A stretch of 64,000 nucleotides of DNA from an uncultured Veillonellaceae bacterium (GCA_963805085.1 CAWDTA010000002.1:2016001-2080000); one strand, 5' to 3'; numbered from the stretch's first letter, positions 28,081 through 60,447 are shown. The notes: generated from the letters alone by a model not told the origin. Numbers and translations: made by a program.

Positions 28081-28106
28081 AACATAAGGGACGTTCCTTT
28101 TTTGAC
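28081..28106 (+). repeat. REP-like site, family 1 (left of RAYT)
   Basis: AACATAAGGGACGTTCCTTTTTTGAC. Confidence 0.7.
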
Positions 28107-28142
28107 AACAAAGTGATATAGTTGTTGTAAGAGGTGATAAAA

Positions 28143-28884
28143 ATGTCACGAGAAGCAAGAAAATTAAGTGAAAGTGGATTTTATCATATAGTATTTCGAG
28201 GAATCAATCATCAAAATATCTTCGAAGACGAACAAGATTTTGAATATATGCTAGAGATATTCAAAAAAATTAAAACAAGAAATGCAGTTTGAAATACATG
28301 CATATTGCTTAATGACAAATCACGTACATATTTTATTAAAAGAAAGTCAAACAGGAGACATATCAACAATATTAAAAAGGTTACTAACAAAATACGTAAT
28401 GAAATTTAATAAAAAATATCAAAGAAGCGGAGCTTTGATAGGAAGTAGATATAAAAGTAAAGTGGTAGAAGTAGATGAATACTTTATTCCATTGATAGTA
28501 TATATACATCAAAATCCATTAAGAGCAGGAATCGTAGAAAAATTAGAAAACTATAAATATAGTAGCTACTGTGAATATCTAGGTGAAAGAAAATTTGTCG
28601 ATGTACAACTATCCTTAGAAATGTTAGGAAAAAAAGAATGGATTAAAGTACATCAGCAATTGGTAGAAAATAAATTTCAAGTCGAAGGTCGGAAAAAACT
28701 AAGTGAAGAAGAAATTCGGCAGAAAATCCTAAAAGATACGGATAATATAGAACCGCAAAGAATAGGAGCACTAGAAAAAACAGAACGAGATAGAATACTA
28801 CAAAAGTTAAAAAATTCTGGATTATCAATAAGAGAAATAGAAAGATCGACAGGGATATCGAGAGGGATTGTAACTAAAAGTTGA
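28143..28884 (+). pseudogene. REP-associated tyrosine (HUH/Y1) transposase, RAYT/TnpA-REP type, +1 frameshift
   Basis: ATG 28143 reads MSREARKLSESGFYHIVFRGINHQNIF. An A7 run at 28263-28269 shifts the frame into AYCLMTNHVHIL (HUH), RYKS, YIHQNPLRAG, YKYSSY and a C-terminal HTH-like tail. Confidence 0.85.
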
Positions 28885-28928
28885 CGAAAAAGGAACGTCC
28901 CCTAGTGTCTCTAGTGTCTCTAGTGTCT
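28883..28928 (-). repeat. REP-like site, family 1 (inverted, at RAYT stop) plus CTAGTGTCT x3
   Basis: GACGAAAAAGGAACGTCCCCTAGTGTC followed by a tandem 9-mer (28902-28928). Confidence 0.75.
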
Positions 28929-29214
28929 ACAGGGGCTAGAGGACGTAACTTATATTAATGGAAAACTTAAGGCAAGGATGATCTACTCTGCCGAAATCAT
29001 TAAACCTGGCACGTTAGGAAGGAATATTGCTCCATATATGTCGGAGGTTGAGTTGATCAAGGGAGAAAATATTTGGCTAATAAGTTCATGGAAGCAAATC
29101 AAGGGTGCGGCAGATGATTTAGAGTATTTTCGAGATGTTCTAGGCAAAATTGATAATGCTAAAAAACGTTATGGCGTAGAGGACTTAGCGAATTGGGATG
29201 GCTTAAAAGACTGA
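28929..29214 (+). pseudogene. Probable 5'-truncated hypothetical gene between two REP-like sites
   Basis: The frame is open upstream of ATG 28978 back toward the tandem repeat (GLEDVTYINGKLKAR). The stop TGA lies inside the next site. Confidence 0.45.
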
Positions 29215-29232
29215 GTGCCGGTTCTTTTTTTC
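29209..29232 (+). repeat. REP-like site, family 1
   Basis: GACTGAGTGCCGGTTCTTTTTTTC, followed by AAGGATACAAAA as at 56298 and 60425. Confidence 0.65.
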
Positions 29233-29364
29233 TGAAACAAGGATACAAAAGAAAAACATTTCCTTATTAACCTAGGTATAACTATTTTAGAAAAGAGTTG
29301 TATCTAGTTAATAAGGGGATGGATACACAAAAGGCAATGTATAGACATGAAAGGTGGTTTAGCA

Positions 29365-30312
29365 ATGAAGATTCTCATAGTCGGTTATTTTACCGAGACC
29401 TCAAAATCAAATATTGCAAGGCATTTTCCGAAAGACTGGGACATTGTAATTGTCCCGCCTGGAAAAGAAATGCTGCATCATATTGAAGATTGTCAGGTAA
29501 TCATACCTGAACATATTAAAGTGGATTACAGTCTGCTCTCTACAGCAAAAAAATTAAAATTGGTACAGACGGGTGCAGGATTTGATAATGTAGATATCGA
29601 TGCCTGTACGCAGCTTGGCATTTGGGCGGCCAATGCTGCAGGAGTGAATGCACAGGCAGTGGCCGAGCACGTAATGGCACTGATATTGTCTTATTATAAA
29701 AACATACCGTTTCTTGATGCTTTCATGAAAAACAAGATGGATGAAAATCAATTGAACTATACAGGGAGTGAATTAAAGGGCAAAACGATTGGAATTATCG
29801 GCTTGGGGGCCGTCGGTAAAAAAGTAACTGAGTTTTGCAAGGTTTTTGATATGAATGTGTTGGCTTATGCTAGAAATACCGCTCAACAATCTGACAGTTT
29901 TGTGAAAATGACGGATTTCGATACTCTTGTAAGCACGTCGGATATAGTAAGTGTACATATACCCCTGAATCAGCAAACCAAACAGCTGATTAACAAAACA
30001 GTATTCAAGAAAATGAAGAATACAGCACTTTTTATCAATACAGCCCGCGGTGGGATTGTCAATGAAAGAGAATTAATAGATGCATTAAAAAGCAGGGACA
30101 TTTCAGGTGCATGCCTAGATGTGTTTGAAACTGAGCCGCTTCCAATTGACAGTGAACTCCGAAACCTAAGTAATGTAATACTTACTCCCCATACGGCAGG
30201 AATGCCTGACGGTCTCAAACTTCATAAAAAAAGATATGATTTTTTTGTGAATAATATAAAACGTGTAGAAAATGGTGAAGAGCCGGAAAGCAAGCTCAAC
30301 CAGTTATTATAG
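29365..30312 (+). CDS. D-isomer-specific 2-hydroxyacid dehydrogenase
   Basis: GAGFDNVD, GIIGLGAVG, INTARG, LDVFETEP, TPHTAG. Confidence 0.9.
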   Translation: MKILIVGYFTETSKSNIARHFPKDWDIVIVPPGKEMLHHIEDCQVIIPEHIKVDYSLLSTAKKLKLVQTGAGFDNVDIDACTQLGIWAANAAGVNAQAVAEHVMALILSYYKNIPFLDAFMKNKMDENQLNYTGSELKGKTIGIIGLGAVGKKVTEFCKVFDMNVLAYARNTAQQSDSFVKMTDFDTLVSTSDIVSVHIPLNQQTKQLINKTVFKKMKNTALFINTARGGIVNERELIDALKSRDISGACLDVFETEPLPIDSELRNLSNVILTPHTAGMPDGLKLHKKRYDFFVNNIKRVENGEEPESKLNQLL

Positions 30313-30329
30313 TTTTGGTACAATAAAAA

Positions 30330-31480: not shown

Positions 31481-31535
31481 GAACAGGGAAGGTTCTATTG
31501 ATTCACATTCTTGTTGAAGACAAAAGGGACGTTCC
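31481..31535 (+). repeat. Two REP-like sites, family 1
   Basis: GAACAGGGAAGGTTCTATTGATTC (31481-31504) and GACAAAAGGGACGTTCC (31519-31535, right arm missing). Confidence 0.6.
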
Positions 31536-31596
31536 GTGCGCCAAGCTAAGGGTACATCATATAGCGGGTGGGAACCCCGCTGAACAAGGTCCAGTA
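31536..31596 (+). mobile_element. Possible group II (IIC-like) intron 5'-end remnant
   Basis: Starts GTGCGCC exactly where the REP-like site is cut, followed by the hairpin AGCGGG-TGGGAAC-CCCGCT. Confidence 0.4.
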
Positions 31597-31635
31597 TTCT
31601 AAAGAAATATTTAAAAGTTGACGGAAAAGGGACGT

Positions 31636-33242
31636 CAGACTGTGCGAAAACGCTCAGGCTTCAGTCTAGATATTAGTCCAAAATGCTAAAATTATATAAA
31701 AATAACGGTAATACTCTAGTAATAATTCTTAACCCTATTTGATTGCTGCTATTATTTCCCTAGTTCCTATAATATTGAGCACACGTTTTAGGTTATACAT
31801 TAAACAATGCATAACCGCTTCACCTTTCACTTTTTCAATTCCACGCAGCAGAAAATGCGTATATCCTAGAGTACGTTTTATTGTACCAAAGGGATGTTCA
31901 ACTATCATTTGTCGTTGCCTGTAAAGTTTTAAATTATTTGCTAGTCGTTCATCCGTACGTGCCATTACTTTCTGATGTTCTCCCTGTACTATTTGTCGAC
32001 CACGTTTATTTTTTGTACACTCATCTTTATGTGAGCAAGTCTTGCAGGCTTTACTTCGATAGAGTTTTTCTCTTGCATCATTTTTGCTTACATTGCATAG
32101 AATTTGACCTTGAGGACAAACGTAATGATCATTCTCTGAATCGTACTTAAAGTTATCCAAAATATAATTTGAATTTCCTGTAGTCGAAGGTGGCTTTTGT
32201 TTAGATACAATTGTAATTATGTTTTCTTTTTCACATTTTTCGAGGCATTGTCCGGTATAGTAACCTTTATCAGCTAATACAGTTATTTCTTCTACATTAA
32301 GTATTTGCTTTGCTTGTGTTGCCATTGCATAAAGTTGCCCTTGATCAGCCGGATTATTGATAACATCTGCAGCAATGATTATGTGATTTTTCGCATCAAC
32401 AGCAGTTTGCATATTATATGCCACATCAAATCCCATATTATTAGCACCCATAAGTCTAGCATCTTTATCTGTCAAAGACATTTCTCCGTTTTGCCTAACC
32501 TGTTGTTTGATTTCGACCAAATCATGAATACGCTGTGTCGCATTAGCTAATTTTTCTCGTATTTCTTCCTTGTTATAAGTAATGGTACTACTGCTATCGT
32601 TTTAATCGTTATTTTCTAATAGCTCCAAATAGCGTTGAGCAGCTTGTTCAAAATATGCTAACATTTTTTCAATTTTACCTTTGGTCAAATTTTTCTTACG
32701 AGCGTTATTAGCTCGAAATTTACTGCCGTCTATAGCGACGATTTCTTTACCCAATAGACCAAGATCATTACATAAGAAAGAAAAATGCTTAAAGATATTT
32801 TTTAGTAAAGATATATTATCCTTCCTAAAGTCAGCAATAGTACGATAATCCGGCTTTAGCTCTTGAATCAACCACATCAATTCTATATTTCTTTTACACT
32901 CATTTTCTAGTTTACGCGAAGTTCTTATGCCATTGAAATATCCATAAAGATACAACTTAAGCATATCAGCAGGATTATATGGTTTACGTCCTGTAGCTTT
33001 TGTGATTGCATATTTAAATCCAAATTCGTTTAAATTCAAAGTGTCGACAAAGGCATCTAATACACGTACTGGATTGTCTTCGCTTATCATTTCATCAGAT
33101 GACATAGGTATAAGATTGATTTGATTTCTGTTAGTGTTATTAGAAATATACCGTCCCATAATTCACCTCAAAGCATGAAATATTATAATCTTATTATAAC
33201 ATTTCAGCTATTAATATCGCTCTATCGTTTTCGCACAGTCTG
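31636..33242 (-). mobile_element. IS1182-family insertion sequence
   Basis: Perfect terminal IRs CAGACTGTGCGAAAACG / CGTTTTCGCACAGTCTG flanked by ACGT on both sides. Ends are ambiguous by a few bp because the target is palindromic. Confidence 0.88.
31735..33159 (-). pseudogene. IS1182-family transposase with in-frame nonsense codon at 32602-32604
   Basis: GRKPYNPADMLKLYLYGY, PDYRTIADFRK, AIDGSK, DKDARLM, LADKGY, RQMIVEHPFGTIK. The two ORFs share one frame. Confidence 0.88.
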
Positions 33243-33246
33243 ACGT

Positions 33247-33292
33247 CCCTGACTGTCCACTGACTGTCCAAAAAGGAACGTCCCTTAGTGTC
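33247..33292 (-). repeat. Right half of the IS-split REP-like site, CTGACTGTCCA x2, and a further family 1 site
   Basis: CCCTGACTGTCCACTGACTGTCCA then AAAAGGAACGTCCCTTAGTGTC (33271-33292). Confidence 0.72.
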
Positions 33293-33298
33293 TTCCTA

Positions 33299-33536
33299 GT
33301 GGATGATAAACTTGAAATGCTGTTTATTAATCCTGTATCGCGTGGCAATGGTATAGGCAAAGAGTCGCTTATTTATGTGATAGAGCAGCAAAAAGTGAAA
33401 CGAGTAGATGTTAATGAGCAGAATGTTCAGGCGGCTGAATTTTATAAGAACATGGGGTTTGGTGTCCGTAAATCGTTCTGAATTTGATGGTGCCGGGAAG
33501 CATTATCCTATCTTGCACATGGAGTTGAAATGCTAA
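33299..33536 (+). pseudogene. 5'-truncated, frameshifted GNAT acetyltransferase (YjaB-like)
   Basis: KLEMLFI.P..RGNGIGK, VDVNEQN.QA..FY..MGF, then RSEFDGAGKHYPILHMELKC in another frame. Confidence 0.72.
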
Positions 33537-33561
33537 CGAGCTAAATTTTAAATGGTAAATA

Positions 33562-33583
33562 GACAGAGAGAACCGTCAATTTG
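33562..33583 (-). repeat. REP-like site, family 1 (inverted)
   Basis: GACAGAGAGAACCGTCAATTTG; reverse complement ...TGACGGTTCTCTCTGTC. Confidence 0.65.
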
Positions 33584-34202
33584 TATATTTGGTTAAAGTC
33601 ACAAAAACCACTAGTTACCTGAGTTTGAAGGGGAGTTGGTGGTTTTTTTTGTGCTCTTGAGAAGGAAATTTTCACCTCTACCATGTAAAACACGGCTTAT
33701 GAAGGAGGTAAATAAAAACTCTTGATTATTCTTTAACGCTTCCTTTTAAAGCGTTAAAGAAAGTGGATTTTGTATGATTAATAATATATTTACAAAATAA
33801 AAAGTGAGAGTTGAGGTCTTTATTGACTTAGGTTCTTACTTTTTTATGTGACTATTTGATGAATACTCTAGGGCAAACTGAGCCAGCGTGGCTCAGTTCA
33901 AAAACGGAATAGTGGATCCGCCACACCGAGATATGCATTTGATGAAAAATCTAGAAATTGAGTGAAAGTCACGTAGACCTGGTCGTTATTTTAAGATTAG
34001 AATTATTGTCTCATAATTTTCTAATGAGTTGTGGTCTAATTGCTATTGGGATTATATAGGAATAATATTACAAAGTTACAAGTAGAGATTATAATTAAAA
34101 TATGAACTTAGATAATATATTGAATGAATTTTACATATAAAGTAAATATTGTACAATACTTACAATGCAAATAAACTGAAAAATATATAAAGAGGTGTTT
34201 AA

Positions 34203-35066
34203 ATGAGTAGTAAGTACAAAGCAAGTATAATAATTCCAACATACAATCGAAGGCATTTGCTGACCTTAACGTTAAAGTCACTCTGTCAACAAACCTTACC
34301 AAAAGAAGATTTCGAAGTAATCATAGTAGATGATGGTTCTACCGATGATACTAAAGAAGTAGTTGCTGATTTCTCAAATTCGTTAAATACAAAGTATATT
34401 TATCAAGAGAAAGATGGATTTAGAGTTGCTGCTGCGAGAAATAAAGGTATATTAAGTTCCGAGGGTAATATATGTATTTTTATAGATTGTGGAATTTTAT
34501 TAGGAACTACTGGTGTGGAAAAAAACGTTATATGTCACAGGTCAGACAATGAGAAAGCAGTTTTAGGATATATTTACGGTTTTGATGAATATAATGAAAA
34601 CGAAAAATATTTGTTAGATTTGAATATTGATCCCTTTAATGTTGATCAATATTTTGAAAGACTTCAAAACGATCGAATACTTGATTACAGAGACGACGTA
34701 TACCAAGAAATTGGAGATGATTTAACAACTTGGTCTGCCCCATGGTCTATATTTTTTACGGGATATGTTTCTGTCAAAAGAGATACTCTTATAAGGGTTG
34801 GTATGTTTGATGAGAGTTATACAACTTGGGGATGTGAAGACACTGATTTGGGTCTTTCCTTATATACAAATGGCGTTCAAATAGTTCTAGAACGTGATCT
34901 AAAATGTATTCATTATCCTCATGAAAAATCGAGATTCTCGGTTGGCGAAGATGCTATAAAAAAGAAAAAAGAATACTTGCATAAAAAATATAATTTAAAA
35001 TCTACCGAATTAGCTTTAACAACCCCAAGTCGTCAATTAAACCAGTTAATGTTTAAAAGTGTGTAG
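34203..35066 (+). CDS. GT2-family glycosyltransferase
   Basis: SIIIPTYNR, VDDGSTD, ARNKG, FIDCG, FDESYTTWGCEDTDLG. Confidence 0.9.
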   Translation: MSSKYKASIIIPTYNRRHLLTLTLKSLCQQTLPKEDFEVIIVDDGSTDDTKEVVADFSNSLNTKYIYQEKDGFRVAAARNKGILSSEGNICIFIDCGILLGTTGVEKNVICHRSDNEKAVLGYIYGFDEYNENEKYLLDLNIDPFNVDQYFERLQNDRILDYRDDVYQEIGDDLTTWSAPWSIFFTGYVSVKRDTLIRVGMFDESYTTWGCEDTDLGLSLYTNGVQIVLERDLKCIHYPHEKSRFSVGEDAIKKKKEYLHKKYNLKSTELALTTPSRQLNQLMFKSV

Positions 35067-35296
35067 ACTTATAGGATATATTAAGTTCTTAGGGGCTTCT
35101 AAAGCTTTCGAATCTAATGATACTTATGCTAGTAAATTATAATATATTTAGAGAAAAAAATTTAATGGAAACTACTAAGTAGAGTCTATGAATTTAAATG
35201 TCAAAAAAATTATAGCATTCTCAATTTACTGCGAATGCTTATAAGATTAAAAAATATGAGCTATATTTTTTTATTAGCTCTCTCTGGAGGATAAAA

Positions 35297-36154
35297 ATGT
35301 CGTTATTTACTATGAAACAACTCTTAGACGATGCGTATCAAAATCATTATGCTATTCCAGCATTCAATTTTGATAACTTTGAATTATTAGTGGGGGTTTT
35401 TCGCGGGGCGGAGGAAGCGCAGACACCTGTGATCATTCAAATTACGGAACCTGCAATAGAATGGTTAACTTTGAAAAATGTAGTATCTGTTGTAAAAAAT
35501 GAGGTAGAACGGTGCGGTTTACCTGTTGCGCTACATCTTGACCATGCAAGTAATTTCGATTTAATAAAATCATGTGTAAAAGCTGGATTTACCTCAGTAA
35601 TGATTGACTATTCTGATAAGGATATAAAGCAAAATATGGAGATGACTCGACAAGTAGTTGATTTTGCTAAGAAATTTAATGTATCAGTTGAGTCTGAGGT
35701 CGGTGTAGTATCAAATATTAATGAAACTAAAGAACTAAGTAATGACTTTACTAGTTTTGATCAAGCAATTGATTTTTGCCAATATACTCAAATTGACGTA
35801 TTAGGTATTTCAATAGGTAATACACACGGGATGAAAAATAGAACAGCTAGTCTAGATATAGAAAGACTAATACGTATAAATGATAAACTTCAAAAGCCTC
35901 TAGCACTTCATGGAAGTTCAGGTGTAAAGGAAGACGACCTTGTTAAGGCTACTAAATTTGGTGTTACAAAAGTAAATATAGAGACTGAATTAAGGGTAGC
36001 ATTTAAAAAAGCAATTGAAGAAATATTTAGAGATAAACCTAATGAAATAAAACCCAGAAATATTATGGCACAAGTACGCCAACGTATCAGTGAACACGTT
36101 ATCGAACATTATAAGCTGTTAAATTCATATGGCAAATGTGCAAATTTTAAGTAA
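35297..36154 (+). CDS. Class II fructose/tagatose-bisphosphate aldolase
   Basis: LHLDHA, GFTSVMID, VESEVG, IGNTHG, LALHGSSG, KVNI.TE. Confidence 0.9.
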   Translation: MSLFTMKQLLDDAYQNHYAIPAFNFDNFELLVGVFRGAEEAQTPVIIQITEPAIEWLTLKNVVSVVKNEVERCGLPVALHLDHASNFDLIKSCVKAGFTSVMIDYSDKDIKQNMEMTRQVVDFAKKFNVSVESEVGVVSNINETKELSNDFTSFDQAIDFCQYTQIDVLGISIGNTHGMKNRTASLDIERLIRINDKLQKPLALHGSSGVKEDDLVKATKFGVTKVNIETELRVAFKKAIEEIFRDKPNEIKPRNIMAQVRQRISEHVIEHYKLLNSYGKCANFK

Positions 36155-36242
36155 TATGTTTTTGAAAGCAAGTAGTGAAAAGTACCATGGAGTTTTTCCA
36201 ACAACATAAAATTTGATTTTTATAATTTAAGGAGTGGATGAG

Positions 36243-36602
36243 ATGGAAGCGATAACTAATGAAATCAATAATATTCAAGATTTATGCTTGGATATATATG
36301 GGCGATATGATATAGATAAATCTATGTTATGGATGGCGGAAGAATTTGGAGAGGTGATAGCTGCAATACGAAAGGGAAAAAGTAAAGATGATATATGCGG
36401 TGAAATAGGTGATCTAACGGCATGGATAATTTCAATATGTAATATTTTAGATATTAGCTTATCTACTGCTTTAAAAGGGACTTTTAAAAAAGAGGTAAAT
36501 AGGCAGTTGCGGACTTATGGAAAACTTAAATATGCACAAAATGAAGCAGCTAAAATTCTTCTGTTAGATATGTTTAATAATTATAAAGAAAAGAGTGTAT
36601 AA
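36243..36602 (+). CDS. MazG-like all-alpha NTP pyrophosphohydrolase
   Basis: WMAEEFGEV..AIRK...GEIGDL.AW (EExxE...ExxD). Confidence 0.8.
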   Translation: MEAITNEINNIQDLCLDIYGRYDIDKSMLWMAEEFGEVIAAIRKGKSKDDICGEIGDLTAWIISICNILDISLSTALKGTFKKEVNRQLRTYGKLKYAQNEAAKILLLDMFNNYKEKSV

Positions 36603-36605
36603 GCA

Positions 36606-37199
36606 TTGATTAATATAGGACTAGCTAAGGGTGTTGTTAAAAGCAAATCGCTTAAACTAATAGAAGAATTGGTAGGTGAAAAAACAGATAAAAATAAACT
36701 CAGCTTTTGTAATGAAGATTTTAGCACTTTTTTACTCAAGCACAGGGATATTCCCCAATTAATTGAAAAGGGGATCATTGATATAGGTATTACCTCAGAA
36801 GAGTGGATTGAGGAAAATGGAAGCTGCGTAGATATAATTGAAAAATTAGACTGGTGTGATACAAGAGTAAGTTTAATAAGTCCAGTGGAAAGTTCAGTTT
36901 TGGCAGGTGATCATCCTATTCATTGTGTTACCGAGTTTCCCAAAATTGCCGAGAAGTTCTTTAAAACGATAAATAGGAGTGATGTAAAAATTGAATTTAT
37001 ATCGGGCTCTTCGGAAGCGCTCGTCCCACGATTGTATGATTGTTGTATAGATTGTGTTGAAACAGGGAGTACACTAAAACTTCATAATCTTTATGAAGAG
37101 TACGTAATATTTAAATCCAAAATTGTATTAGTAACTAACATTAAAATTAAAAACAAAAATCAAGATATGATAGAAAGAATTAAGGATATAATCAAATAA
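36606..37199 (+). CDS. hisG: ATP phosphoribosyltransferase, short form, divergent
   Basis: IGLAKG, DIPQLIEKGIIDIGIT, GSSEAL, D.VETGSTLKLHNL PRPP-binding motif. 197 aa, no C-terminal regulatory domain. Confidence 0.78.
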   Translation: MINIGLAKGVVKSKSLKLIEELVGEKTDKNKLSFCNEDFSTFLLKHRDIPQLIEKGIIDIGITSEEWIEENGSCVDIIEKLDWCDTRVSLISPVESSVLAGDHPIHCVTEFPKIAEKFFKTINRSDVKIEFISGSSEALVPRLYDCCIDCVETGSTLKLHNLYEEYVIFKSKIVLVTNIKIKNKNQDMIERIKDIIK

Positions 37200-37208
37200 A
37201 GGATAAAG

Positions 37209-38543
37209 GTGTATGATGTGCAGTCATTAAGAGAGGTTGCTGCTGATGTAATAGAAAAGATTGTAATTAAAAGTTACCCCTTTTTATCTCTTGGTAAACC
37301 TATATCGTTAATAATGGATCAATTCGCTACCAAAGAATATGATCGTTTATTACAAGCAGCATTAAATATTGGTTATAGTATACAGGTTCTTTCGGTAGAA
37401 GGAGAAAGAGATGGAGTATTCTGTTCGGAAATGCAAACGTTTGAGGAAAGTTCAAAAAAACCAAACTTAATTATAGTTGTTGACCCCATAGATGGGACCC
37501 TTACCGGCTCTCGAGGTGGGGCTAGATGTTTATCTGTTATAGGTATATCTGAAAATAAAAAGGGAAAGTCGTTTAAAAAATTACCTGATTGTCTATCGTG
37601 TTTCTCTGTGGGAAGTCAAGAAAATAACAAATTTCTAGAACATCTCTGTGTGAATGGAAATAAGATAGGCTTGAATAATTTTGAAAAGGACTTTATGACA
37701 CTTAATATTTCTACGTTACATAGGGCGGAGACGAAAGAACTTTTTTCTAACTTATTAGGTTTAAGCGTAGAAGAATTCGAAAAGAAGTATAGATTTTCAA
37801 TTGGTGAAAGAACATTATATAGGCCTAATCTGGCATATAAAATGATTATCTTTGTGGGGGATACTTCTGTTTCTTTACCTTTAGAAACTAAAAATTTTAT
37901 AGGAAGAACAGGTATTGCAGAAGCAAGATTAGAGTCTAGTATGTGGAAATATTGGAGAGGTTTAATAGTATCGGGAAGTAAAATGAAACGGTATGAAGGC
38001 GGGCCAATTAAATATCTTATTGATAGAATGAATTGCGCCAACAATCAAAAAGATATAGATATAACGAGTTTGTTTGAAGAAAGTGAAATGAAAGCGATGC
38101 TGAACTATGGATGGAAATTAGGTGAGATTGCTTCCTTTTTAGAAAAGGATGAATTTACACCAGAATTTAAGTTGATATGCATTGCTTCCATTTCAGGAAC
38201 ACGTGATAGATATTTGAAATCAATGCAACTCGGGAATCTTAAGCCTTGCATGTTTATTCCGGAGAAAAACTCTATACTTTATGAGACTTGGATTGTCGAA
38301 GATGGTCTTCTGAAAAAGGAAAAAAAGGAATGCATAATTAATACCATCAATGATGATAAATGGTCAAAGTATATATTAGATTGGTATAAAAAGGGAAGTT
38401 GGTCAGAAGTGTTTGCTAGGGCTAGCAAACACATTGAAAATAGTTCTGATCAATATCAGGTATTAAATTTTTTGGCTAGGTTAGAAAGAGGAGAAAGCTT
38501 GACGAAAAAGGATGTTAAATATGCTTACAATGAGTTGCAGTGA
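37209..38543 (+). CDS. Divergent GlpX/FBPase-IMPase superfamily phosphatase-like protein
   Basis: SVEGERD and IVVDPIDGT match the GlpX GEGE.D and DPxDGT metal-binding motifs. The remainder is not recognised. Confidence 0.55.
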   Translation: MYDVQSLREVAADVIEKIVIKSYPFLSLGKPISLIMDQFATKEYDRLLQAALNIGYSIQVLSVEGERDGVFCSEMQTFEESSKKPNLIIVVDPIDGTLTGSRGGARCLSVIGISENKKGKSFKKLPDCLSCFSVGSQENNKFLEHLCVNGNKIGLNNFEKDFMTLNISTLHRAETKELFSNLLGLSVEEFEKKYRFSIGERTLYRPNLAYKMIIFVGDTSVSLPLETKNFIGRTGIAEARLESSMWKYWRGLIVSGSKMKRYEGGPIKYLIDRMNCANNQKDIDITSLFEESEMKAMLNYGWKLGEIASFLEKDEFTPEFKLICIASISGTRDRYLKSMQLGNLKPCMFIPEKNSILYETWIVEDGLLKKEKKECIINTINDDKWSKYILDWYKKGSWSEVFARASKHIENSSDQYQVLNFLARLERGESLTKKDVKYAYNELQ

Positions 38544-39363: not shown

Positions 39364-39364
39364 G

Positions 39365-40297: not shown

Positions 40298-40375
40298 CTT
40301 GTGGAAAAGCCTCTAACAGTATACTTGCGTTATCTTAGTCAGGGGTATGTTCATAAAAAAGACGGAGGAAATATA

Positions 40376-45353: not shown

Positions 45354-45354
45354 A

Positions 45355-47703: not shown

Positions 47704-47724
47704 GACTAAGTGATGTTTTCTTGT
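47704..47724 (+). repeat. Degenerate REP-like site, family 1
   Basis: GACTAAGTGATGTTTTCTTGT. Confidence 0.45.
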
Positions 47725-48634: not shown

Positions 48635-48730
48635 AAAATTGGAAAATCAACTGCGTAATGGTAACGCAGTTGATTTTTTTTACTAGTAATAGTGGAAAAT
48701 TTTACAATAACATGGTAATATATGAATAAC

Positions 48731-48741
48731 TGGTCATACCA
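48731..48741. promoter_or_regulatory. FadR-type operator
   Basis: TGGTCATACCA palindrome upstream of etfB. Confidence 0.6.
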
Positions 48742-48784
48742 TAATACCAATATGGTTCCTGAAAAACAAATAGGGGGTAAACGT

Positions 48785-49573: not shown

Positions 49574-49585
49574 TAGCAGCGTACT

Positions 49586-49662
49586 TGATTATATAGTGAT
49601 TATATAGTGATTATATAGTGATTATATAGTGATTATATAGTGATTATATAGTGATTATATAG
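49586..49662. repeat. VNTR, TGATTATATAG x7
   Basis: Seven perfect 11-bp units between etfB and etfA. Confidence 0.95.
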
Positions 49663-49725
49663 TGCACATGTACTGGTCTGACGTATGACCACTGCTGATA
49701 AAATCGTTGCAAGGAGGAGAATACT

Positions 49726-50916: not shown

Positions 50917-50936
50917 CTTGTATTTCTTAGAAATAG

Positions 50937-52367
50937 ATGGCTGGAGGTAATAAAATGGGAGACATTTGTAAGCAGGAATATAATAAATTAGATCAGAAAG
51001 ATATTGCTTTTCTACTCGATCTGCTTGGTAAAGACAGAGTATATACAGGTACGGAGATTAATGAAGACTACAGCCATGATGAACTTGGCGGAATAAGCAA
51101 AATGCCGGAAGCTGTTGTTGAAGTGTCAAGTACAAAAGAAGTAGCAAAGATTATGGAATATGCTTATGAGCATAGCATTCCTGTCGTGCCCAGAGGGTCT
51201 GGTACAGGGCTTGTTGGAGCATCTGTCGCTATTTATGGTGGGATTATGATCGATTTAACGAAAATGAATAAAATACTCGAAGTCGATGAAGAAAACTTAA
51301 CGCTAACCGTGGAGCCAGGCGTTTTGCTCATGGAGATTGGCAAGTTTGTCGAGCAGTACGATCTCTTTTATCCCCCTGACCCTGGTGAAAAGTCAGCTAC
51401 GATCGGCGGAAATATTAATACAAATGCCGGCGGCATGAGAGCAGTTAAATATGGTGTAACAAGGGATTATGTAAGAGGTCTTACGGTAGTGCTGCCAACA
51501 GGAAAAATTTTAGAAGTTGGTGGCAAGGTTGTTAAAAATAGCTCAGGATATAGTATAAAAGATCTTATTTGTGGTTCAGAAGGGACGTTGGGTATTGTAA
51601 CCCAAGCCGTGTTAAAGTTGCTGCCGTTGCCGAAAAAAGCCATAAGTTTGTTGGTTCCATTTTCCACCCTTGAAAGAGCCATCAATACAGTCCCTAAGAT
51701 CATAAAATCAAAGTCGATACCAACAGCTATTGAGTTTATGCAAAGAGAAGTTATTATTGCGGCAGAGGAGTATTTAGGCAAGAAATTCCCCGATAACTCA
51801 GCAGATGCCTATTTGCTGTTAACTTTTGACGGAAACAGCAAACAAGACGTTGAAAAAGAATATGACAGAGTGGCTAGCATCTGCTTAGCTGAAGGAGCCT
51901 TGGATGTCTATATTTCTGATACGGATGAAAGAAAAGAAGCGGTGTGGTCGGCGCGGGGAGCCTTTCTCGAAGCGTTGAAAGCCACTACCGAAATGGATGA
52001 ATGTGACGTTGTAGTGCCCAGAAATAAAGTTGCAGAATTTGTTAAATATACGACTGAACTACAGCAACAGTTTGGGATGAGAGTAAGAAGTTTTGGGCAT
52101 GCAGGCGATGGAAATTTGCACGTATATGTATTGAGAGATGATTTGCCACAGGAAGAGTGGCAAAAGAAATTGAAAGCGGTTTTCGCTTGTATGTATAAAA
52201 AATCTGTGGAGTTAGATGGATTAGTATCCGGGGAGCATGGCATAGGTTATGCGAAAAAAACGTATTTGTTTGAGCAATATGGCAATGATTACATGGGTCT
52301 CATGCTGAATATTAAGCTGGCCTTTGACCCTAAAAATATTTTAAATCCGGGCAAAGTTTGTCAGTAG
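50937..52367 (+). CDS. FAD-linked ETF-dependent lactate dehydrogenase (LctD/GlcD-like)
   Basis: [48 protein letters not shown]. Context matches an lct operon. Confidence 0.88.
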
Positions 52368-52494
52368 GCTGCCAAGTATCTGGTTAGAAAGCCCTTTAGA
52401 GTGGCGCGCTGCGTTCTTCTTGCTTTAAACTATTCCGGACGCACCGTTTTCTATAGTATTTCAAACTATCTATGAATACGGGAGGAAGAATACC

Positions 52495-54018
52495 ATGAAT
52501 ATGTATTTGCTTTTTATGATTGCATTGATACCAATCGTTTGGCTAATGGTTTCATTGGTAGGGTTAAAGATAGCAGGGCATAAAACAACCCCGCTTAGCC
52601 TTGGTATAACGCTTATGCTAGCAATAACTGTATGGGGAATGCCAGCAATCGATGCGGTGAGCGCAGGACTAGAGGGAGCGGCTATGGCCATATGGCCGAT
52701 TATGATTGTTATTATTGCCGCTGTATTTATTTATAATCTGTCGCTGTACACAAAGGGGATGGATGTTATTACGAGTATGATGACAGGTATAACAACAGAT
52801 CAAAGAATATTAGTGCTTATCCTAGCATGGGGGTTTGGCGGATTTCTTGAGGCTATTGCCGGTTTTGGGACGGCTGTTGCTATTCCGGCCAGCATTATGG
52901 CGGCACTTGGCTTTGAACCTGTTTTCGCGGCAATTATCTGTCTAATTGCCAATACTACGCCAACCGCCTTTGGCGCTATAGGGCTTCCGGTATCAACACT
53001 TGCCCAAGTTGCCGGTCTTGAGGTAAACGAATTAAGTTATGCGATAGCACTTCAGCTTGTACTCTTAATTGTTATTGTTCCCATGGTATTAGTTATGATT
53101 ACGGGAAAAAGTGTCAAGGCCATTAAGGGGGTTTTTGGCATCTCGCTGGTATCAGGGTTAGCGTTTGCTGTTCCGCAACTGCTAGCAAGTAAGTATATGG
53201 GCGCGGAACTTCCAGCCATTCTCGGTTCTGTAGTGTGTTTAGTCACAACAATTGCTTGGGCTAAACTATATCATAAAGATAAAGCACAAAAAAATGCAAA
53301 AAAGATATCCACGAGGCAAGCATGCATGGCTTGGCTGCCATTTGTCTTAGTATTCCTCATTATAATTGCCACAAGCTCGTTATTTCCCAGTATCAATAAA
53401 ATGTTAGCGGCAGTGCAAACTGCAGTAAACATTTACAGCGGTCCTGGCGGTCATCCCTATTCCTTTGTCTGGCTCGCTAATCCAGGTACGCTTATTATCT
53501 TTGCAGGGATTATCGGAGGCTTGCTGCAAGGAATAAAGCTTACTGAAGTAGTTGGTGTCTTAGGGAAGACGGTTAGGCAAATGACCAATTCCGCCATTAC
53601 TATAGTTTCTATTGTAGCACTGGCAAAAGTTATGAGTTATAGTGGCATGATCAAGTCAATAGCCGTAGTTTTAGTTTCGGTAACAGGCTCAGCCTATCCC
53701 CTCATAGCGCCTGTTATCGGAGCACTTGGCACTTTTGTAACAGGCAGTGATACATCGGCAAACGTATTGTTCGGCGGGCTGCAAGTCGAAGCGGCTAGAT
53801 CACTCTCGTTGAATCCCTATTGGTTAGCTGCAGCTAATGCGGCAGGCGCAACTGCAGGCAAGATGATATCACCACAAAGCATTGCTGTTGCCACTGCTGC
53901 TACAGGACTTGCGGGTGCAGAGGGCAAAATATTATCAGCTACTTTACGCTTTTGTATGGTTTATGTAATTATATTAGGCATCGTGACATTCCTAATGGAA
54001 CCGATTTTTGTAGACTGA
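52495..54018 (+). CDS. L-lactate permease (LctP family)
   Basis: FLEAIAGFGT, ANTTPTAFGAIG.P, GSDTSANVLFG.LQ, GKMISPQSIA. Confidence 0.92.
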   Translation: MNMYLLFMIALIPIVWLMVSLVGLKIAGHKTTPLSLGITLMLAITVWGMPAIDAVSAGLEGAAMAIWPIMIVIIAAVFIYNLSLYTKGMDVITSMMTGITTDQRILVLILAWGFGGFLEAIAGFGTAVAIPASIMAALGFEPVFAAIICLIANTTPTAFGAIGLPVSTLAQVAGLEVNELSYAIALQLVLLIVIVPMVLVMITGKSVKAIKGVFGISLVSGLAFAVPQLLASKYMGAELPAILGSVVCLVTTIAWAKLYHKDKAQKNAKKISTRQACMAWLPFVLVFLIIIATSSLFPSINKMLAAVQTAVNIYSGPGGHPYSFVWLANPGTLIIFAGIIGGLLQGIKLTEVVGVLGKTVRQMTNSAITIVSIVALAKVMSYSGMIKSIAVVLVSVTGSAYPLIAPVIGALGTFVTGSDTSANVLFGGLQVEAARSLSLNPYWLAAANAAGATAGKMISPQSIAVATAATGLAGAEGKILSATLRFCMVYVIILGIVTFLMEPIFVD

Positions 54019-54035
54019 GTGACGGTTCTCTTTAG
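54013..54035 (+). repeat. REP-like site, family 1, containing the permease stop codon
   Basis: GACTGAGTGACGGTTCTCTTTAG. Confidence 0.75.
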
Positions 54036-54248
54036 TACTATAAAAGTGTGAACACTAAATGAAAGAATTTAGTCGTTCACACTTATTTTTATTATAATAA
54101 GTGGAGTATATGGTCAGACGTCCGGTTCTGTGGATTTCGCATCCGTGAGACAAACAGTCTGCCATCCACTAGTTATAAATCTTTGATTAAGCAGGTTGGA
54201 ACCACTTATTGGCTTTCGTGTAACGGACTAAAATGAAGAGTAATAAGG

Positions 54249-54699
54249 GAAACATGGGGACAGGGATTATGTTTTCTATGATACATCAGATCATTCAAGA
54301 CAGCTGGCTCTATAGGGAAGGTAAGGAGATCATTGATCTCCTTTAATTTTTACCAGACTTCTTATAATAGATCCTAGGGTGATTGTCAGCGCTGCAACCA
54401 CAATAATCAGTGTAAACTCATTCGTATATTGTATATGTAATTCTACAGCTGCCAATGTTATCAAAATTAAAGTATATATTCCCATAATGTTATTGGGCCA
54501 TGGGGATAGAATATATTCTTCCGAACCCAATAAAATTCACCTACCTTTCTTTTATGTATATCCTACGCAGCTTCATTGCTTTCTGCGCTTATCCGACTGC
54601 ATTTTGGGGGTGCCTATGAAACATGGGGACAGGGATTATGTTTACTAGAAAAGAAGTAAAACAAGCCCCCTGTCCCCATGTTTTCTGTCCCCATGTTTT
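54249..54699. repeat. REP-like family 2 cluster
   Basis: GAAACATGGGGACAGGGATTATGTTT at 54249 and 54618, inverted AAACAAGCCCCCTGTCCCCATGTTTT at about 54659, and CTGTCCCCATGTTTT x2. Confidence 0.8.
54330..54530 (-). CDS. Small two-TM hypothetical protein between family 2 direct repeats
   Basis: SD AAAGGTAGGTG upstream on the minus strand. Hydrophobic 66-aa ORF. Confidence 0.45.
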   Translation of the reverse strand: MGSEEYILSPWPNNIMGIYTLILITLAAVELHIQYTNEFTLIIVVAALTITLGSIIRSLVKIKGDQ

Positions 54700-56144: not shown

Positions 56145-56297
56145 ACGAGAGGCGAAAGGTAGTCTAAATTCCTTACTAATTTCAAACAGACGTTTTTTAA
56201 CGTTACAGATCGTAGACCAAAGGTACTTTACGTAAAGAGTAAAGTACCTTTGGAATTGCAAAATTCAAATTTTTTAAAGAAACTGATGTGTATTTAA

Positions 56298-56320
56298 GAC
56301 ATAGTGACGGTTCTTGTGTC
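56298..56320 (+). repeat. REP-like site, family 1
   Basis: GACATAGTGACGGTTCTTGTGTC. Confidence 0.78.
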
Positions 56321-56498
56321 TAAAAGAAGGATACAAAAGAATGAATTATTAAACAAATGGAGCATGTACAAATTCAAAAAAAACCTGAATTGTACATGCT
56401 CTATTTGTTTATTTCTGATTTGTCCGTTCTACCAACGAGGTAATCAAGCGAAACATCAAAGTGATTAGCTAAAGCAAGAAGAACCTGTCCTTGTTATT

Positions 56499-58563: not shown

Positions 58564-58832
58564 AATCGGCAAAGTAGGTTTTTAGTTGCTGCCGAAACTT
58601 CACTTTCTGGCAATATTCATGGAATGTCGGTAGCGGTGAGCTTAGGCAGTGGTCATGAACGATTGACGGTAATTGGAGGTACCGAAGCCAAGCTAGATCT
58701 AGGGGTGTCAAGATTGAAATTCGGGATTTGGCCCCTGGGAGAAGAGTCTACTTTCCGCGATATAAATACTGCTTAAGCTAGCCTATAATATGTAATTTAA
58801 TGCTATTTTGTTATTCAGAAAGGAGTAGCATC

Positions 58833-59513
58833 TTGAAAAAACTATTTATTGCGAGCCTCATTTTAAACTTGCTTATAATACCAACGTGTATAGTAATTTT
58901 AGTGAGAAATCATTACCCAAAACAAACTACAACAACGATAATGGAATCAGACAATTATAAATACAGACTTGATATGTTTAACACTTTGCCAATGGAAAAG
59001 CAAAGTATTGTATTTTTAGGTGATAGTCATACAGAGCGTTGCGAGTGGGCAGAACTTTTTCAGAATTCAGATATAATTAACAGAGGAATTGATGGTGACA
59101 CTACCGAAGGTTTATTCAGTAGAGTCCATAATATAACAATATTAAAGCCTAATAAGATTTTTATTATGATTGGCGTTAATGATATTTTAGCTCATACCCC
59201 TTCAGTAACAACAATAGAAAATTACAGACAAGTGATAGAAGCGATTAGCTGGGAATCGCCTAATACTAAAATATACCTACAAAGCGTACTACCAATATCC
59301 GAATCTATAAATAAAGAAGCAAACGCTGATATCGTAGCTTTCAATAACGAAATACAAAAATTGGCACAAACTTATAATGTCACATACATTAATCTGTATG
59401 ATAAATTTTATACACGAGACGGACTAAACGAAGCATTAAATTATGATGGACTACACCTAAATGGAAAAGGATATTTATTGTGGCGTGAACTTATAACAAA
59501 TTATATAGAATAA
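58833..59513 (+). CDS. SGNH/GDSL-family esterase
   Basis: FLGDS, NRGIDG, IGVND, DGLHLN. N-terminal membrane anchor. Confidence 0.88.
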   Translation: MKKLFIASLILNLLIIPTCIVILVRNHYPKQTTTTIMESDNYKYRLDMFNTLPMEKQSIVFLGDSHTERCEWAELFQNSDIINRGIDGDTTEGLFSRVHNITILKPNKIFIMIGVNDILAHTPSVTTIENYRQVIEAISWESPNTKIYLQSVLPISESINKEANADIVAFNNEIQKLAQTYNVTYINLYDKFYTRDGLNEALNYDGLHLNGKGYLLWRELITNYIE

Positions 59514-59720
59514 AAAACGGTTTTTTTTATACTTTATAAACACTCGTAGATGTAATTCCTTCGACACGTTATAGATTCTTCTAACAAGTCATTAAACTCG
59601 ATTGTTATATAAGAAAGTTCGATGATAAACACTAATAGGATGGAGCTCTAACTAAATGTTTCTTTTATAATCGATACGGAGAATCGTATATTGAAAAGGG
59701 GGGATTTTCAAGGTCGCGGA

Positions 59721-59733
59721 TCGCCTCCACCAA
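59721..59733 (+). repeat. Copy of the tmRNA 3' end (attR-like)
   Basis: TCGCCTCCACCAA is identical to 19963-19975. The downstream GTGAATATGAAATA resembles TTAAATACTGAAATA. Confidence 0.6.
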
Positions 59734-59829
59734 GTGAATATGAAATATGGAATATTGCTGGAATATATAAAGTGAGCCGTTAAGACTGATAAGGTCTTAA
59801 CGGATTTTGACGTTTATAGTACGCTTACA

Positions 59830-60264
59830 TTGGAGGGGTATTTATTATGGTAAAGAGTGTGTTTGATTTGTTGGCTTCTACGATGGAACATGAAAATTCG
59901 TTCATACATGAACTGTTACAGTTTTTGTATGACCAAATGACGAAAATTTTATAATAAGCAAAAAATCCAGCTGAACATAGAAGTTAGCTGGATTTTTATT
60001 ATAATACTTACTTTTTTTTGACACAAAATCATCGTTTTCTGACACCATCTTTACGGTAAATCATGTTAATATCAAGGTGAAAATAATTATGAAGGCGATG
60101 ACGATGATGGATTTTAAAAGCTCTTCACAGGCGAGTCATTCGATAGTCTTATTATCAATTTTAAAAGGAAGATGAATGTTGTGACAGAGGCCTTACCTCT
60201 CTTTACATTTTGTTTAGGATTTTGCATTGGCTTATTGTTGTGGCCAAAACTTATAGGATTTAAA
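59830..60264 (+). repeat. Duplicate of 44133-44837 with most of orfX deleted
   Basis: The orfX 5' fragment (ATG 59847) is fused to the block starting AAATTCGTTCATACATG that matches 44469 onward. Confidence 0.85.
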
Positions 60265-60300
60265 AAAATAACCGCTACTCTCGTCGAAATAAAGTGTTAG
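60181..60300 (+). CDS. Family B peptide copy extended into the family A hairpin
   Basis: MTEALPLFTFCLGFCIGLLLWPKLIGFKKITATLVEIKC. Confidence 0.4.
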   Translation: MTEALPLFTFCLGFCIGLLLWPKLIGFKKITATLVEIKC

Positions 60301-60424
60301 CGGTTATTTTGATATAAATTTAGCCTAAGCCTTTGTCAGACGACCGTTTCCAGTACGTCTTTTTATATTTTTATCTTATAACAGGCAAAGTATACTGTCA
60401 AGAGGATTTAGGATTTAGGCTTTA

Positions 60425-60447
60425 GACAGAGTGACGGTTCTTGTGTC
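60425..60447 (+). repeat. REP-like site, family 1
   Basis: GACAGAGTGACGGTTCTTGTGTC, preceded by GGATTTA-GGATTTA-GGCTTTA. Confidence 0.78.

Follow-up and report, generated by a model that had tools for sequence, protein, structure and literature searches.

Ends of several RAYT-type transposase families at the boundaries of accessory gene blocks in a Veillonellaceae genome

Introduction

In most discussions, RAYTs figure as domesticated enzymes, present in single copy, through which non-coding REPINs spread in Proteobacteria. In Escherichia coli, Pseudomonas and Stenotrophomonas, a RAYT (TnpA_REP) gene flanked by inverted repetitive extragenic palindromes (REPs) or BIMEs is known as a REPtron. 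The attC sites of integrons, to which the sites described here have been likened, are imperfect palindromes of 57-141 nt with GTTRRRY core sites. Here we analyse a stretch of 64,000 nucleotides (the window, C2:2016001-2080000) from the genome of an uncultured Veillonellaceae bacterium (G000; 4.21 Mb, 37% G+C, five contigs), in which a RAYT-type gene and dispersed copies of a short palindromic site lie at the edges of unrelated gene blocks. A sequence-only reading of this locus had proposed that the sites are recombination joints that capture or shuffle cargo, analogous to an integron but served by an HUH enzyme.

Several elements of such a locus are already known in kind, namely RAYTs with cognate repeats, insertion sequence (IS)-like RAYTs in Clostridia, and REPs as targets of insertion sequences. 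RAYT genes flanked either by GTAG REPs or long terminal inverted repeats have been described (PMC3733652), and the Group 1 RAYTs of Bertels et al. (2017) are reported from Clostridia among many classes, with some duplicates and with flanking 16-mers of low abundance (about 12), an IS-like pattern (PMC5581495). REPs have been reported as targets of insertion sequences, including members of the IS110 family (PMC1525189, PMC11208160, bioRxiv 10.1101/2025.01.17.633520).

We find, with moderate confidence, that the locus is best read as part of a REPtron-like system of several RAYT families, whose ends mark, and probably promote, the boundaries of gene blocks in variable islands. The comparisons below draw on a congener (G001), a genome of another family (G004), a further genome (G019), 25 relatives for matches to individual blocks, and metagenome contigs of four independent studies or runs aligned to the window (X1, X2 and X6 among them); positions 55.3-56.0 kb and those beyond 60.7 kb had no contig cover and are excluded from the metagenome evidence.

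Results

Distinct classes of site in the window

The sequence-only reading had described one repeated site, GAC-N3-6-G[G/T]GACG[G/T]T[T/C]CT-N2-5-GTC, at 16 positions, and its recurrence is real and non-random. The core GKGACGKTYCT has eight matches in the window, where 100 shuffles gave a mean of 0.07, and the full consensus matches five times (28883 on the minus strand, 43031, 45355, 56298 and 60425) against none in 200 Markov simulations, and 24 times genome-wide. All 16 positions were read, however, and only those five fit the consensus exactly; several families had been mixed, with at least two different motifs that share only the letters GACG-T-C-T. Class B has the motif GGGACGTTCC (in fuller form GACAnAAGGGACGTTCCTTTTyyGwCAmC), often followed by two or three direct repeats of 8-9 nt, and is represented in the window at 28081+, 28883-, 31519+ and 33271-. 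Class A has the motif AGACnnnGTGACGGTTCTnnnTGTCT (in fuller form AGAC-nnn-GTGACGGTTCT-nnn-TGTCT) and falls into subtypes A2 (AGACTGAG/TAAG/ATAG...) and A1 (A[G/T]ACAAGG...); its members are 29209+ (variant GTGCCGG), 43031+, 45355+, 56298+, 60425+, 54013+ (the left 19 nt only) and the inverted A1 copy 33562-. The positions 31620 and 33257 are two halves of a single class-B-like site separated by an IS1182-family element, and degenerate copies account for 43119 and 47704 (both class A-like) and for 31481, a weak match that is probably not a mobile site because it is conserved with its neighbouring gene in G004.

Class A sites in the window stand alone and, apart from the one inverted copy, share an orientation and lie where gene blocks have their 3' ends. 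The sites overlap stop codons at 28884, 29214 and 54018 and adjoin the stop at 31480, just as had been claimed. In A2 variants the stop position reads TGA, TAA or TAG, and in A1 it reads AAG. The Asp-stop pair given by GAC TGA of an A2 site ends three unrelated genes: the 78-aa fragment at 29214, the lactate permease at 54018 (also in G001:C95), and a gene of G004 (L002 9473) that we take to be a TetR-type regulator.

Genome-wide, a position weight matrix (PWM) built from the genomic class A copies gave 55 matches against 3 in the shuffled genome. Thirteen fall in C1:313-348 kb and 11 in C2:2045-2105 kb (where three gapped variants escape the matrix), and most of the remainder flank RAYT-A genes. 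None of the 41 strong class A sites is centred in an open reading frame (ORF) of at least 150 aa, such ORFs making up 79% of the genome; class B sites number about 16-18. An even spread through core intergenic DNA had been named as an outcome that would tell against the proposal, and the scan returned extragenic sites clustered in variable islands instead.

It is scarcely credible that the motif recurs by chance or that it serves as a regulatory operator or transcription terminator. Sites do lie after genes, and several copies are followed by a T-run or by a separate terminator hairpin; yet the shuffle, PWM and Markov simulation counts exclude chance, the stems are weak and enclose 13-nt loops, and the motif stands inverted on both sides of transposase genes.

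RAYT families and their cognate ends

The RAYT gene of the window (RAYT-B) lies, as had been reported, between inverted copies of the motif (28085-28109 and 28880-28904, 25 nt, 88% complementary). Its two ORFs, 28134-28292 and 28282-28884, together encode a Y1_Tnp protein with the signatures NHVHILL and YIHQNP, and are out of frame through one extra A in the run 28263-28269 when set against two intact 249-aa paralogous copies at C2:1948640 and C2:1951288, 92-95 kb upstream, both flanked by the same ends. The Pfam model PF01797 (Y1_Tnp) scores 32.2 bits for the window fragment and 53.6 bits for an intact copy. With the NCBIfam model REP_Tyr_transpos (NF047646), RAYT-B and its paralogue RAYT-A both score 75.6 bits, under the curated equivalog cut-off of 80, and RAYT-B scores 27.6 bits against a cut-off of 55 with the IS200 model. 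The signatures NH(V/A/I)H(L/I)LL and YIH(Q/K)NP are kept in all 13 full-length paralogues aligned, which places these proteins of about 250 aa, with a C-terminal helix-turn-helix (HTH)-like tail, among the Y1 HUH enzymes.

The genome holds 24 PF01797 matches, of which five are identical IS200-type genes and 19 are RAYT-like loci. The flanks of these 19 show that each paralogue family lies between inverted copies of its own motif (classes A-E), and a class F motif stands upstream of a broken RAYT-like gene at C2:709244. The families are 26-49% identical to one another (33-36% for RAYT-A against RAYT-B) and comprise 2-5 copies each. Two copies each of RAYT-A and RAYT-B are intact, those of RAYT-A elsewhere in the genome (C4:178276-179028 and near C2:538 kb), and three of the five RAYT-A loci are truncated. 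Units of RAYT-B and RAYT-A, with their sites, are found within loci (C2:1946112-1948145, L012, and L030 of G019, respectively) that also contain polymorphic-toxin-like C-terminal fragments and small immunity-like genes.

The enzyme-motif pairing is conserved, since homologues in other genera carry matching ends. RAYT-B homologues of 75-88% identity occur with the same ends in Pelosinus and Proteocatella records, Pelosinus species being the closest named records with the gene, which suggests an organism of Negativicutes type, and 37-38% identical homologues in two other Firmicutes records have a related upstream motif whose arms are different yet complementary. A matching motif was found upstream at the homologue loci, with an inverted downstream copy at four of seven, the other three running off the contig or being interrupted by other DNA. 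In a plasmid collection all RAYT-B relatives were below 60% identity (24.9-38.3% in the 12 matches listed) and were annotated "transposase" where annotated at all.

These results disagree with one part of the sequence-only reading, which had tied a single family of sites to the RAYT gene of the window. That gene is not the cognate enzyme of the cargo brackets, because the brackets are of class A whereas RAYT-B belongs to class B and is a pseudogene; as far as the flanking repeats indicate, class A ends are cognate to the RAYT-A paralogue encoded elsewhere in the genome. The same pairing bears on a different idea, namely that class A sites are recognised by a tyrosine recombinase, as Xer-type modules like pdif. 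The 28 nt of a site would divide into two 11-nt arms, imperfectly inverted, with 6 nt between them, the genome has two full-length PF00589 genes, and such modules would explain the alternating site orientation of an array near rlmD (below). In the window, on the other hand, the sites are direct repeats and do not alternate, and the motif is tied to RAYT rather than to Xer because each RAYT family has its own motif at both gene ends; we consider a dif-like origin very improbable.

Breakpoints between relatives fall at the sites

In every comparison made, with G001, G004 and the metagenome contigs, breakpoints coincide with sites, as had been predicted, and the two cargo blocks named in the sequence-only reading, the HisG/PurM and the lactate block, are indeed bracketed by them. 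The prediction that breakpoints would share one fixed base of the site did not hold, three or more positions being used: the left edge (45354), after GTGAY (47716), after GGTTCTC (54030, an IS110 junction) and after GTCTA (G001, X6 and the rlmD units). No insertion sequence adjoins those at 45354, 47716 and 33590, or those after GTCTA in G001 and X6.

The lactate block is carried at 96-99% identity by one contig of G001. Homology starts at 47717, inside a decayed class A site, where the window reads AGACTAAGTGAT followed by GTTTTCTTGTAT and G001 reads ...GGGGACATGAA followed by GTTTTCTTGTAT, and it stops at 54033, where G001 has an intact A2 site with unrelated DNA beyond. A 6556-nt contig of X6 matches 47715-54033 with unlike DNA on both sides, and past 54033 it reads GTCTATGGCAAT..., unlike G001; in both G001 and X6 homology to the decayed site at 47704 begins after GTGAT, at 47715-47717. 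X2 (record 10) aligns from 47711; across G001 and contigs from three of the four metagenome runs, homology to the block begins at 47711-47717 and ends at 54033. X1 stops at 54033, and one of its contigs joins 54030 to a terminator/HTH module through 10 other letters. The DNA beyond the A2 site of the block thus differs among G001, X6, X1 and the window, which gives the block three or four different right-hand contexts and a related left context.

At the HisG/PurM block, the match to G004 runs up to 33590, through a 2-hydroxyacid dehydrogenase gene, a 237-aa gene, an intact GNAT gene and an A1-like site, and resumes at 43163 with an A2-like site and a terminator/HTH/DUF6809 module, at 83-87% identity on both sides. 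Between these shared flanks G004 has 6.6 kb of other genes where the window has the 9.4-kb block, and the block found no match in the 25 relatives except for a stretch of about 100 nt, 38936-39060 (63-89% identity, 8 hits in 6 genomes). The truncations reported at sites were borne out for the GNAT gene and for an ABC-F-type gene, which is severed at 45354 and continues past that junction in G001, where about 220 nt more are seen; the third, the fragment at 28978-29214, has no Pfam match. In six genomes homology to the ABC-F leader stops at 45352-45354, and another X1 contig lacks 44915-45352 and has a different left arm of the site. A scan of the metagenome with a 20-nt class A pattern returned four stretches only, a number too small for surveying junctions, and two of these repeat the context downstream of rlmD.

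The 2-hydroxyacid dehydrogenase gene (29347-30312) adjoins the site at 29209 and has counterparts of about 90% identity in four other families' genomes and of 82% in a fifth. Homology is limited to the ORF and some 35-60 nt upstream, ending at the stop, and therefore points to a recent single-gene transfer. No class A site lies near the gene in those five genomes (L001, L003-L006), and its spread among families without sites appears to count against site-borne transfer of this gene.

Three kinds of mobile element target the sites

Three unrelated mobile elements, IS110, IS1182 and a group II intron, target the sites. IS110 is represented by two copies (C2:1470760-1472412 and C1:313674-315145), whose ORFs match DEDD_Tnp_IS110 (PF01548) and Transposase_20 (PF02371), and by the fragment at 54031-54247; insertion is at one set position within class A and class B sites, after GTTCCT at C2:1472412 and after GGTTCTC in the window. 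At C2:1472412 the element stands between GGGGACGTTCCT, which ends in GTTCCT, and TTCTGTCACC of a class B site, and the X6 contig has the same IS110 left end after ...GGACGTTCCT. The long non-coding left end of IS110 may encode a guide RNA for the motif. A candidate IS200-type miniature element at 54031-54700 was rejected, its start being the left end of the IS110 copies.

The IS1182-family element of the window is inserted in the palindromic core of a class-B-like site, between GGGAC and GTCCC, and its 25-nt inverted repeats take in part of the motif. Class C group II introns insert after terminators or attC sites; here, intron 5' ends (GTGCGCC) directly follow a site in the window and at two of three genomic loci with a GIIM maturase match; these copies stand after RAYT-end motifs of three classes (31536-31590 in the window, C2:641837 on the minus and C2:1596341 on the plus strand). 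An Rfam E-value scan of 31400-31700 gave no match for the intron fragment, which is called from its GTGCG start, its 93% identity to C2:641771-641837, and a GIIM match lying downstream of the genomic copy. The IS110 and IS1182 insertions account for the breakpoints at 54030 and at 31628/33250 but not for the others.

These insertions raise the question of whether the sites are merely passive, that is, old RAYT relics that serve as targets for IS110 (bridge-RNA-guided), IS1182 and introns and for host recombination between short repeats, with no present role for a RAYT. The exact placement of the three elements in or directly after sites would follow from this, as would the identity of the 54030 breakpoint with an IS110 junction, the decay of the window's RAYT-B gene and of most RAYT-A loci, and the degeneracy of many sites. 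Against it stand the intact copies of RAYT-A and RAYT-B, the breakpoints that have no adjacent insertion sequence, and the conservation of cognate ends around paralogues across genera, which argues that the enzymes use them. We regard purely passive sites as quite unlikely.

Arrays elsewhere in the genome and in relatives

A second concentration of class A sites, downstream of rlmD at C1:310549-347883 (L007, L008), contains four copies of a module: an A2 site, then roughly the last 420 nt of rlmD including its terminator, then A1 in inverted orientation. Identity among the rlmD 3' copies, and between them and the end of the resident gene, is 84-89%. Alternating with the modules are cargo segments of a single gene or a few, a 5823-aa ORF among them, and the orientation of the sites alternates as well; other cargo ORFs are presumably a DUF1016-like gene and ATPase-type genes of defence-like appearance. 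The array includes one empty inverted doublet (C1:342487/342520, starts 33 nt apart, about 4-8 nt between edges), the remaining inverted doublets of the genome enclosing 1.5-22 kb; the window contains no short one. REPINs, in comparison, are inverted REP doublets of short spacing (tens of nt) that occur in many copies.

The junction of A2 with CAGAYG is the same in the four rlmD copies, lies 15 nt further upstream in G001 and much further upstream in G004, and is elsewhere in a metagenome record. Because other genomes show other junctions, the shared one may be inherited and not enzymatic, and the rlmD copies were rejected as proof of site-specific integration at one base. In G004 a duplicated rlmD 3' part has between its copies a 572-aa gene, which we take to be DUF262-like.

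A class B array (C2:1439302-1478605; L035, L036) comprises nine co-oriented modules over 40 kb of accessory genes, each consisting of a terminator, about 50 nt resembling a RAYT 3' end, a site, and direct repeats of 8-9 nt. Such modules occur among other genes in G001 and G004, with several matches 1-5 kb apart in each. In G019 co-oriented class A sites lie between orphan toxin-like and immunity-like genes, and one cassette is RAYT-A itself. When the rlmD and class B arrays were compared with five genomes each, cargo was not shared, only inter-cassette modules or repeats were, and no further breakpoints were mapped. The genome has three PF00589 matches in all (C5:313 kb, C2:943 kb and C4:2.6 kb); with none near C2:2.04-2.14 Mb or C1:0.31-0.35 Mb, this search found no IntI or other integrase in the rlmD array or after the tmRNA gene, and no attI or array promoter was found.

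The arrays bear most directly on the possibility of a true cassette mechanism, in which RAYT-A acting in trans would move class A-bounded blocks (cargo followed by A2, or inverted A1, cargo and A2) and build arrays downstream of ssrA and rlmD. We consider it unlikely, although it is the main rival to our reading. It would account for the direct, co-oriented A2 sites at block 3' ends, for the lactate block with its A2 site meeting different DNA directly after ...GTCTA in G001, X6 and X1, and for the pairs GNAT-A1 and A2-like-module that G000 and G004 share around unrelated cargo. It would likewise fit the four rlmD modules alternating with partly defence-like cargo around an empty doublet in the absence of an integrase, the nine class B modules with similar arrays of other cargo in G001 and G004, the stop codons within the site, and a cassette-like architecture that recurs across genera. 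Against it, no identical cassette was seen at two loci, two rlmD-array cassettes having given no second context when 300 genomes of the class were searched at shallow depth, two candidates being scored per genome. Junction positions vary with respect both to the site and to rlmD, IS110 and IS1182 account for some of the breakpoint signal, a gene for 2-hydroxyacid dehydrogenase has spread among families without sites, and there is no dedicated platform; the strand bias is confounded (below), and contig data cannot reveal circles.

Some of the same observations weigh against our preferred reading of a REPtron-like, multi-family system. Arrays of co-oriented sites with differing cargo recur in G001, G004 and G019; the empty doublet of 33 nt stands beside doublets enclosing 1.5-22 kb; and GAC TGA within the site supplies the end of three unrelated genes. 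A2 sites lie on the G-rich strand, which we take to be the lagging-strand template, in 11 of 11 cases, although this bias is confounded with gene orientation and duplicated array units. Such regularities look more orderly than would be expected of debris and agree better with a dedicated cassette mechanism than with passive accumulation. Predicted DNA hairpins of the sites are weak (-2 to -4.9 kcal/mol, z-scores -0.35 to -2.7), and the tie between the RAYT enzymes and the solo sites appears to be one of association. The motif is described as a short stem around a G-G/T-G-A-C-G/A loop, with a conserved loop of 13 nt and a weak stem; because the folding is weak, hairpin stability was given no weight, and the stem is argued from arms that differ between classes yet remain complementary.

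Features of the window

The first third of the window consists of core genes, including pyruvate kinase, RNase R and an ORF presumed to be SmpB. A tmRNA gene at 19621-19974 is the sole match of an Rfam gathering scan of the window; from it onward the DNA is accessory and mosaic, the hypervariable region beginning just past it. The features from 28081 onward are collected in Table 1.

The 9.4-kb block holds nine or ten genes (34203-42935), among them a histidine phosphatase gene and genes for proteins of 444 aa and 225 aa without a Pfam match, and the cluster may encode the pathway to some unknown small molecule. At 46655-47700, three units of about 480 nt lie in tandem, and each comprises a DUF6809-like 3' end and a perfect 25-nt stem (46748-46805), and one metagenome contig lacks one of the units. 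Between EtfB and EtfA, the 11-nt unit TGATTATATAG is repeated about eight times (49575-49684); its copy number differs between relatives, since 66 nt, or six units, are missing from contigs in three of the runs. The lactate permease has its full length, covering Pfam positions 3-521 of 522.

Table 1. Sites, transposase genes and cargo in the window, in order of position.
Feature	Position	Strand	Basis
Class B site, left end of RAYT-B unit	28081..28109	+	Inverted repeat; same end in two genomic copies and in Pelosinus/Proteocatella homologues
RAYT-B pseudogene (Y1 HUH transposase)	28134..28884	+	Pfam; alignment to intact copies
Class B site, right end with RAYT stop codon, then three 9-nt direct repeats TAGTGTCTC	28880..28929	-	Inverted repeat; reading
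78-aa gene fragment	28978-29214	+	No Pfam match
Class A site, A2, variant GTGCCGG	29208..29233	+	GAC TGA is last codon and stop of 78-aa fragment
Weak motif match abutting stop of 237-aa ORF	31481..31503	+	Kept beside same gene in G004
Class B site, left end of decayed second RAYT-B unit (31519-33296)	31519..31535	+	Read
Group II intron 5' fragment (GTGCGCC...), directly after GGGACGTTCC	31536..31590	+	93% identical to C2:641771-641837
RAYT 3'-end remnant (...AAAAGTTGA) and first half of class-B-like inverted site	31591..31627	+	Read directly
IS1182-family insertion sequence, transposase in two ORFs	31628..33250	-	Perfect 25-nt terminal inverted repeats (31628-31652 / 33226-33250); DUF772; DDE_Tnp_1_6
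Second half of split class-B-like site with direct repeats, and further class B site (33262-33296)	33251..33296	-	Read
GNAT acetyltransferase 3' part, 5' part lost	33297..33481	+	Pfam; intact 144-aa gene in G004
Class A site, A1, inverted; left edge of 9.4-kb block	33561..33586	-	Inverted repeat; G004 homology stops at 33590
Cargo block (HisG/PurM, 9.4 kb)	33587..43029	+	GT2, class II aldolase, MazG, HisG-like, split transketolase, AIR-synthase-like, His_Phos, two ORFs without family match
Class A site, A2; right edge of 9.4-kb block	43030..43055	+	Core match
Degenerate A2-like site; counterpart of G004 site before shared module	43119..43148	+	Read
Repeated module: palindromic terminator, two XRE-type HTH genes (-), DUF6809-like gene (+)	43163..44443	.	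Copies or partial copies from 45435, 56317 and 60444
ABC-F-type gene leader and first 29 codons (from 45267)	44989..45353	+	Severed exactly at left edge of next site
Class A site, A2	45354..45379	+	Core match
Decayed class A site	47704..47730	+	Synteny breakpoint
Lactate-utilisation block: GntR/FCD regulator, EtfB, EtfA, FAD-linked oxidase, lactate permease	47942..54018	+	96-99% identical in G001
Class A (A2) site, left 19 nt	54012..54030	+	GAC TGA is permease last codon and stop; intact in G001
IS110-family left-end non-coding fragment, inserted in class A site	54031..54247	+	88.5-89.4% identity with the left end of each of two IS110 copies
Three class F sites: 54250-54275 +, 54619-54643 +, 54659-54683 -	54250..54683	.	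Inverted repeats; cognate motif of paralogue at C2:709244
Class A site, A2, then terminator/HTH module	56297..56322	+	Core match; direct repeat
Class A site, A2, then terminator/HTH module	60424..60449	+	Core match; direct repeat

Discussion

A REPtron-like system of several families suggests the following course of events. Each site would be the family-specific end of one of several RAYT-type Y1 (HUH) units that populate the hypervariable region after the tmRNA gene, a unit being a RAYT-like gene of about 250 aa between two inverted copies of its own motif; class B ends would belong to the frameshifted RAYT-B and to the decayed second unit at 31519-33296, and class A ends to RAYT-A. The enzymes may disperse their ends in trans, as happens with REPs and REPINs. 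The ends then appear as preferred landing sites for IS110, IS1182 and the group II intron, as the insertions described above show, and they may also be places of illegitimate or short-homology recombination, while the repeated modules that adjoin them (terminator/HTH/DUF6809 and rlmD 3' ends) could offer homology for exchange. The net result would be a cassette-like mosaic without a dedicated integron-type platform.

What stands of the original proposal is that the sites coincide with the joints of rearrangements; the lack of an integrase, an attI or a common promoter and the varying junctions tell against the integron analogy. Capture of cargo driven by an HUH enzyme seems to us unlikely, if still plausible on the arrangement of the sites. 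A bolder proposal, which we consider doubtful, is that Negativicutes and related Firmicutes have diversified RAYT-type HUH enzymes which, working in trans at the hairpin ends cognate to them, excise, insert and shuffle the blocks these bound, and so build integron-like arrays of accessory and defence genes at fixed chromosomal anchors (after ssrA; in or after rlmD), which would amount to a single-strand HUH analogue of the integron.

The locus adds to what is known of RAYTs a Firmicute-type genome in which RAYT-like families number at least six, every one having ends of its own, and ends that lie at accessory-block boundaries differing between relatives. The literature searches made here listed no description of gene cassettes bounded by RAYT ends or of an rlmD-anchored array, and none of six or more enzyme and end families in one Firmicute-type genome, of their concentration in islands, or of ends that coincide with cargo edges across genera. 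Were these enzymes found to move DNA at the ends or to join it there, this would represent a new route for the exchange of gene blocks and a source of sequence-specific enzymes that join single-stranded DNA; if they do neither, the locus would still be a clear case of REP-like sites serving as landing pads for three kinds of mobile element.

Comparison with known systems

The locus resembles integron arrays and CALINs in that short folded sites of one orientation follow the blocks at their 3' ends, some of them over a stop codon, in its variable and partly defence-like cargo, and in the group II intron at a site. It differs from them in having no IntI, attI or Pc, in its multi-gene blocks with their own regulators, in the lack of a single junction base, and in an enzyme that is of the HUH type and not a tyrosine recombinase. 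Judged by the general features of attC, the sites are also distinct, at 26-30 nt with the core GACGGTTCT or GACGTTCC. With the pdif modules of Acinetobacter plasmids the rlmD array shares short sites (28 nt) that bracket modules in alternating orientation, whereas here the motif is cognate to RAYT genes and is not known to be linked to Xer.

With IS200/IS605 elements and their non-autonomous PATEs the units described here would share Y1 HUH chemistry on single strands, with hairpin ends, no obvious target duplication and a strand bias; their ends, however, are inverted and not subterminal hairpins on the same strand, their protein has 250 aa against about 130-165 aa for TnpA, and the five identical copies of a true IS200 in the genome are separate from them. 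Targeting of REPs by insertion sequences is paralleled by IS110, whose insertion point within class A and B sites is fixed, and by IS1182 in the palindrome core, and accounts for 54030 and for 31628/33250 but not for the breakpoints without an adjacent insertion sequence.

Among RAYTs, Groups 2 and 3 are single-copy and vertically inherited and have hundreds of REPs or REPINs, a pattern from which the present families depart, with 55 class A and about 16-18 class B sites and with homologues of 75-88% identity in other genera. The likeness to Group 1 is one of description, and we found no account of sites that bracket cargo in PMC5581495. Set beside a REPtron, the units differ in that their proteins of about 250 aa with an HTH-like tail fall under the NCBIfam cut-off, that each family has 2-5 copies, and that sites number tens and not hundreds, lie in variable islands at block edges, and have weak stems around a conserved 13-nt loop. 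They share with it a Y1 HUH-like gene between inverted copies of a short palindromic motif, the occurrence of that motif at other extragenic places, and several paralogues each with a motif of its own.

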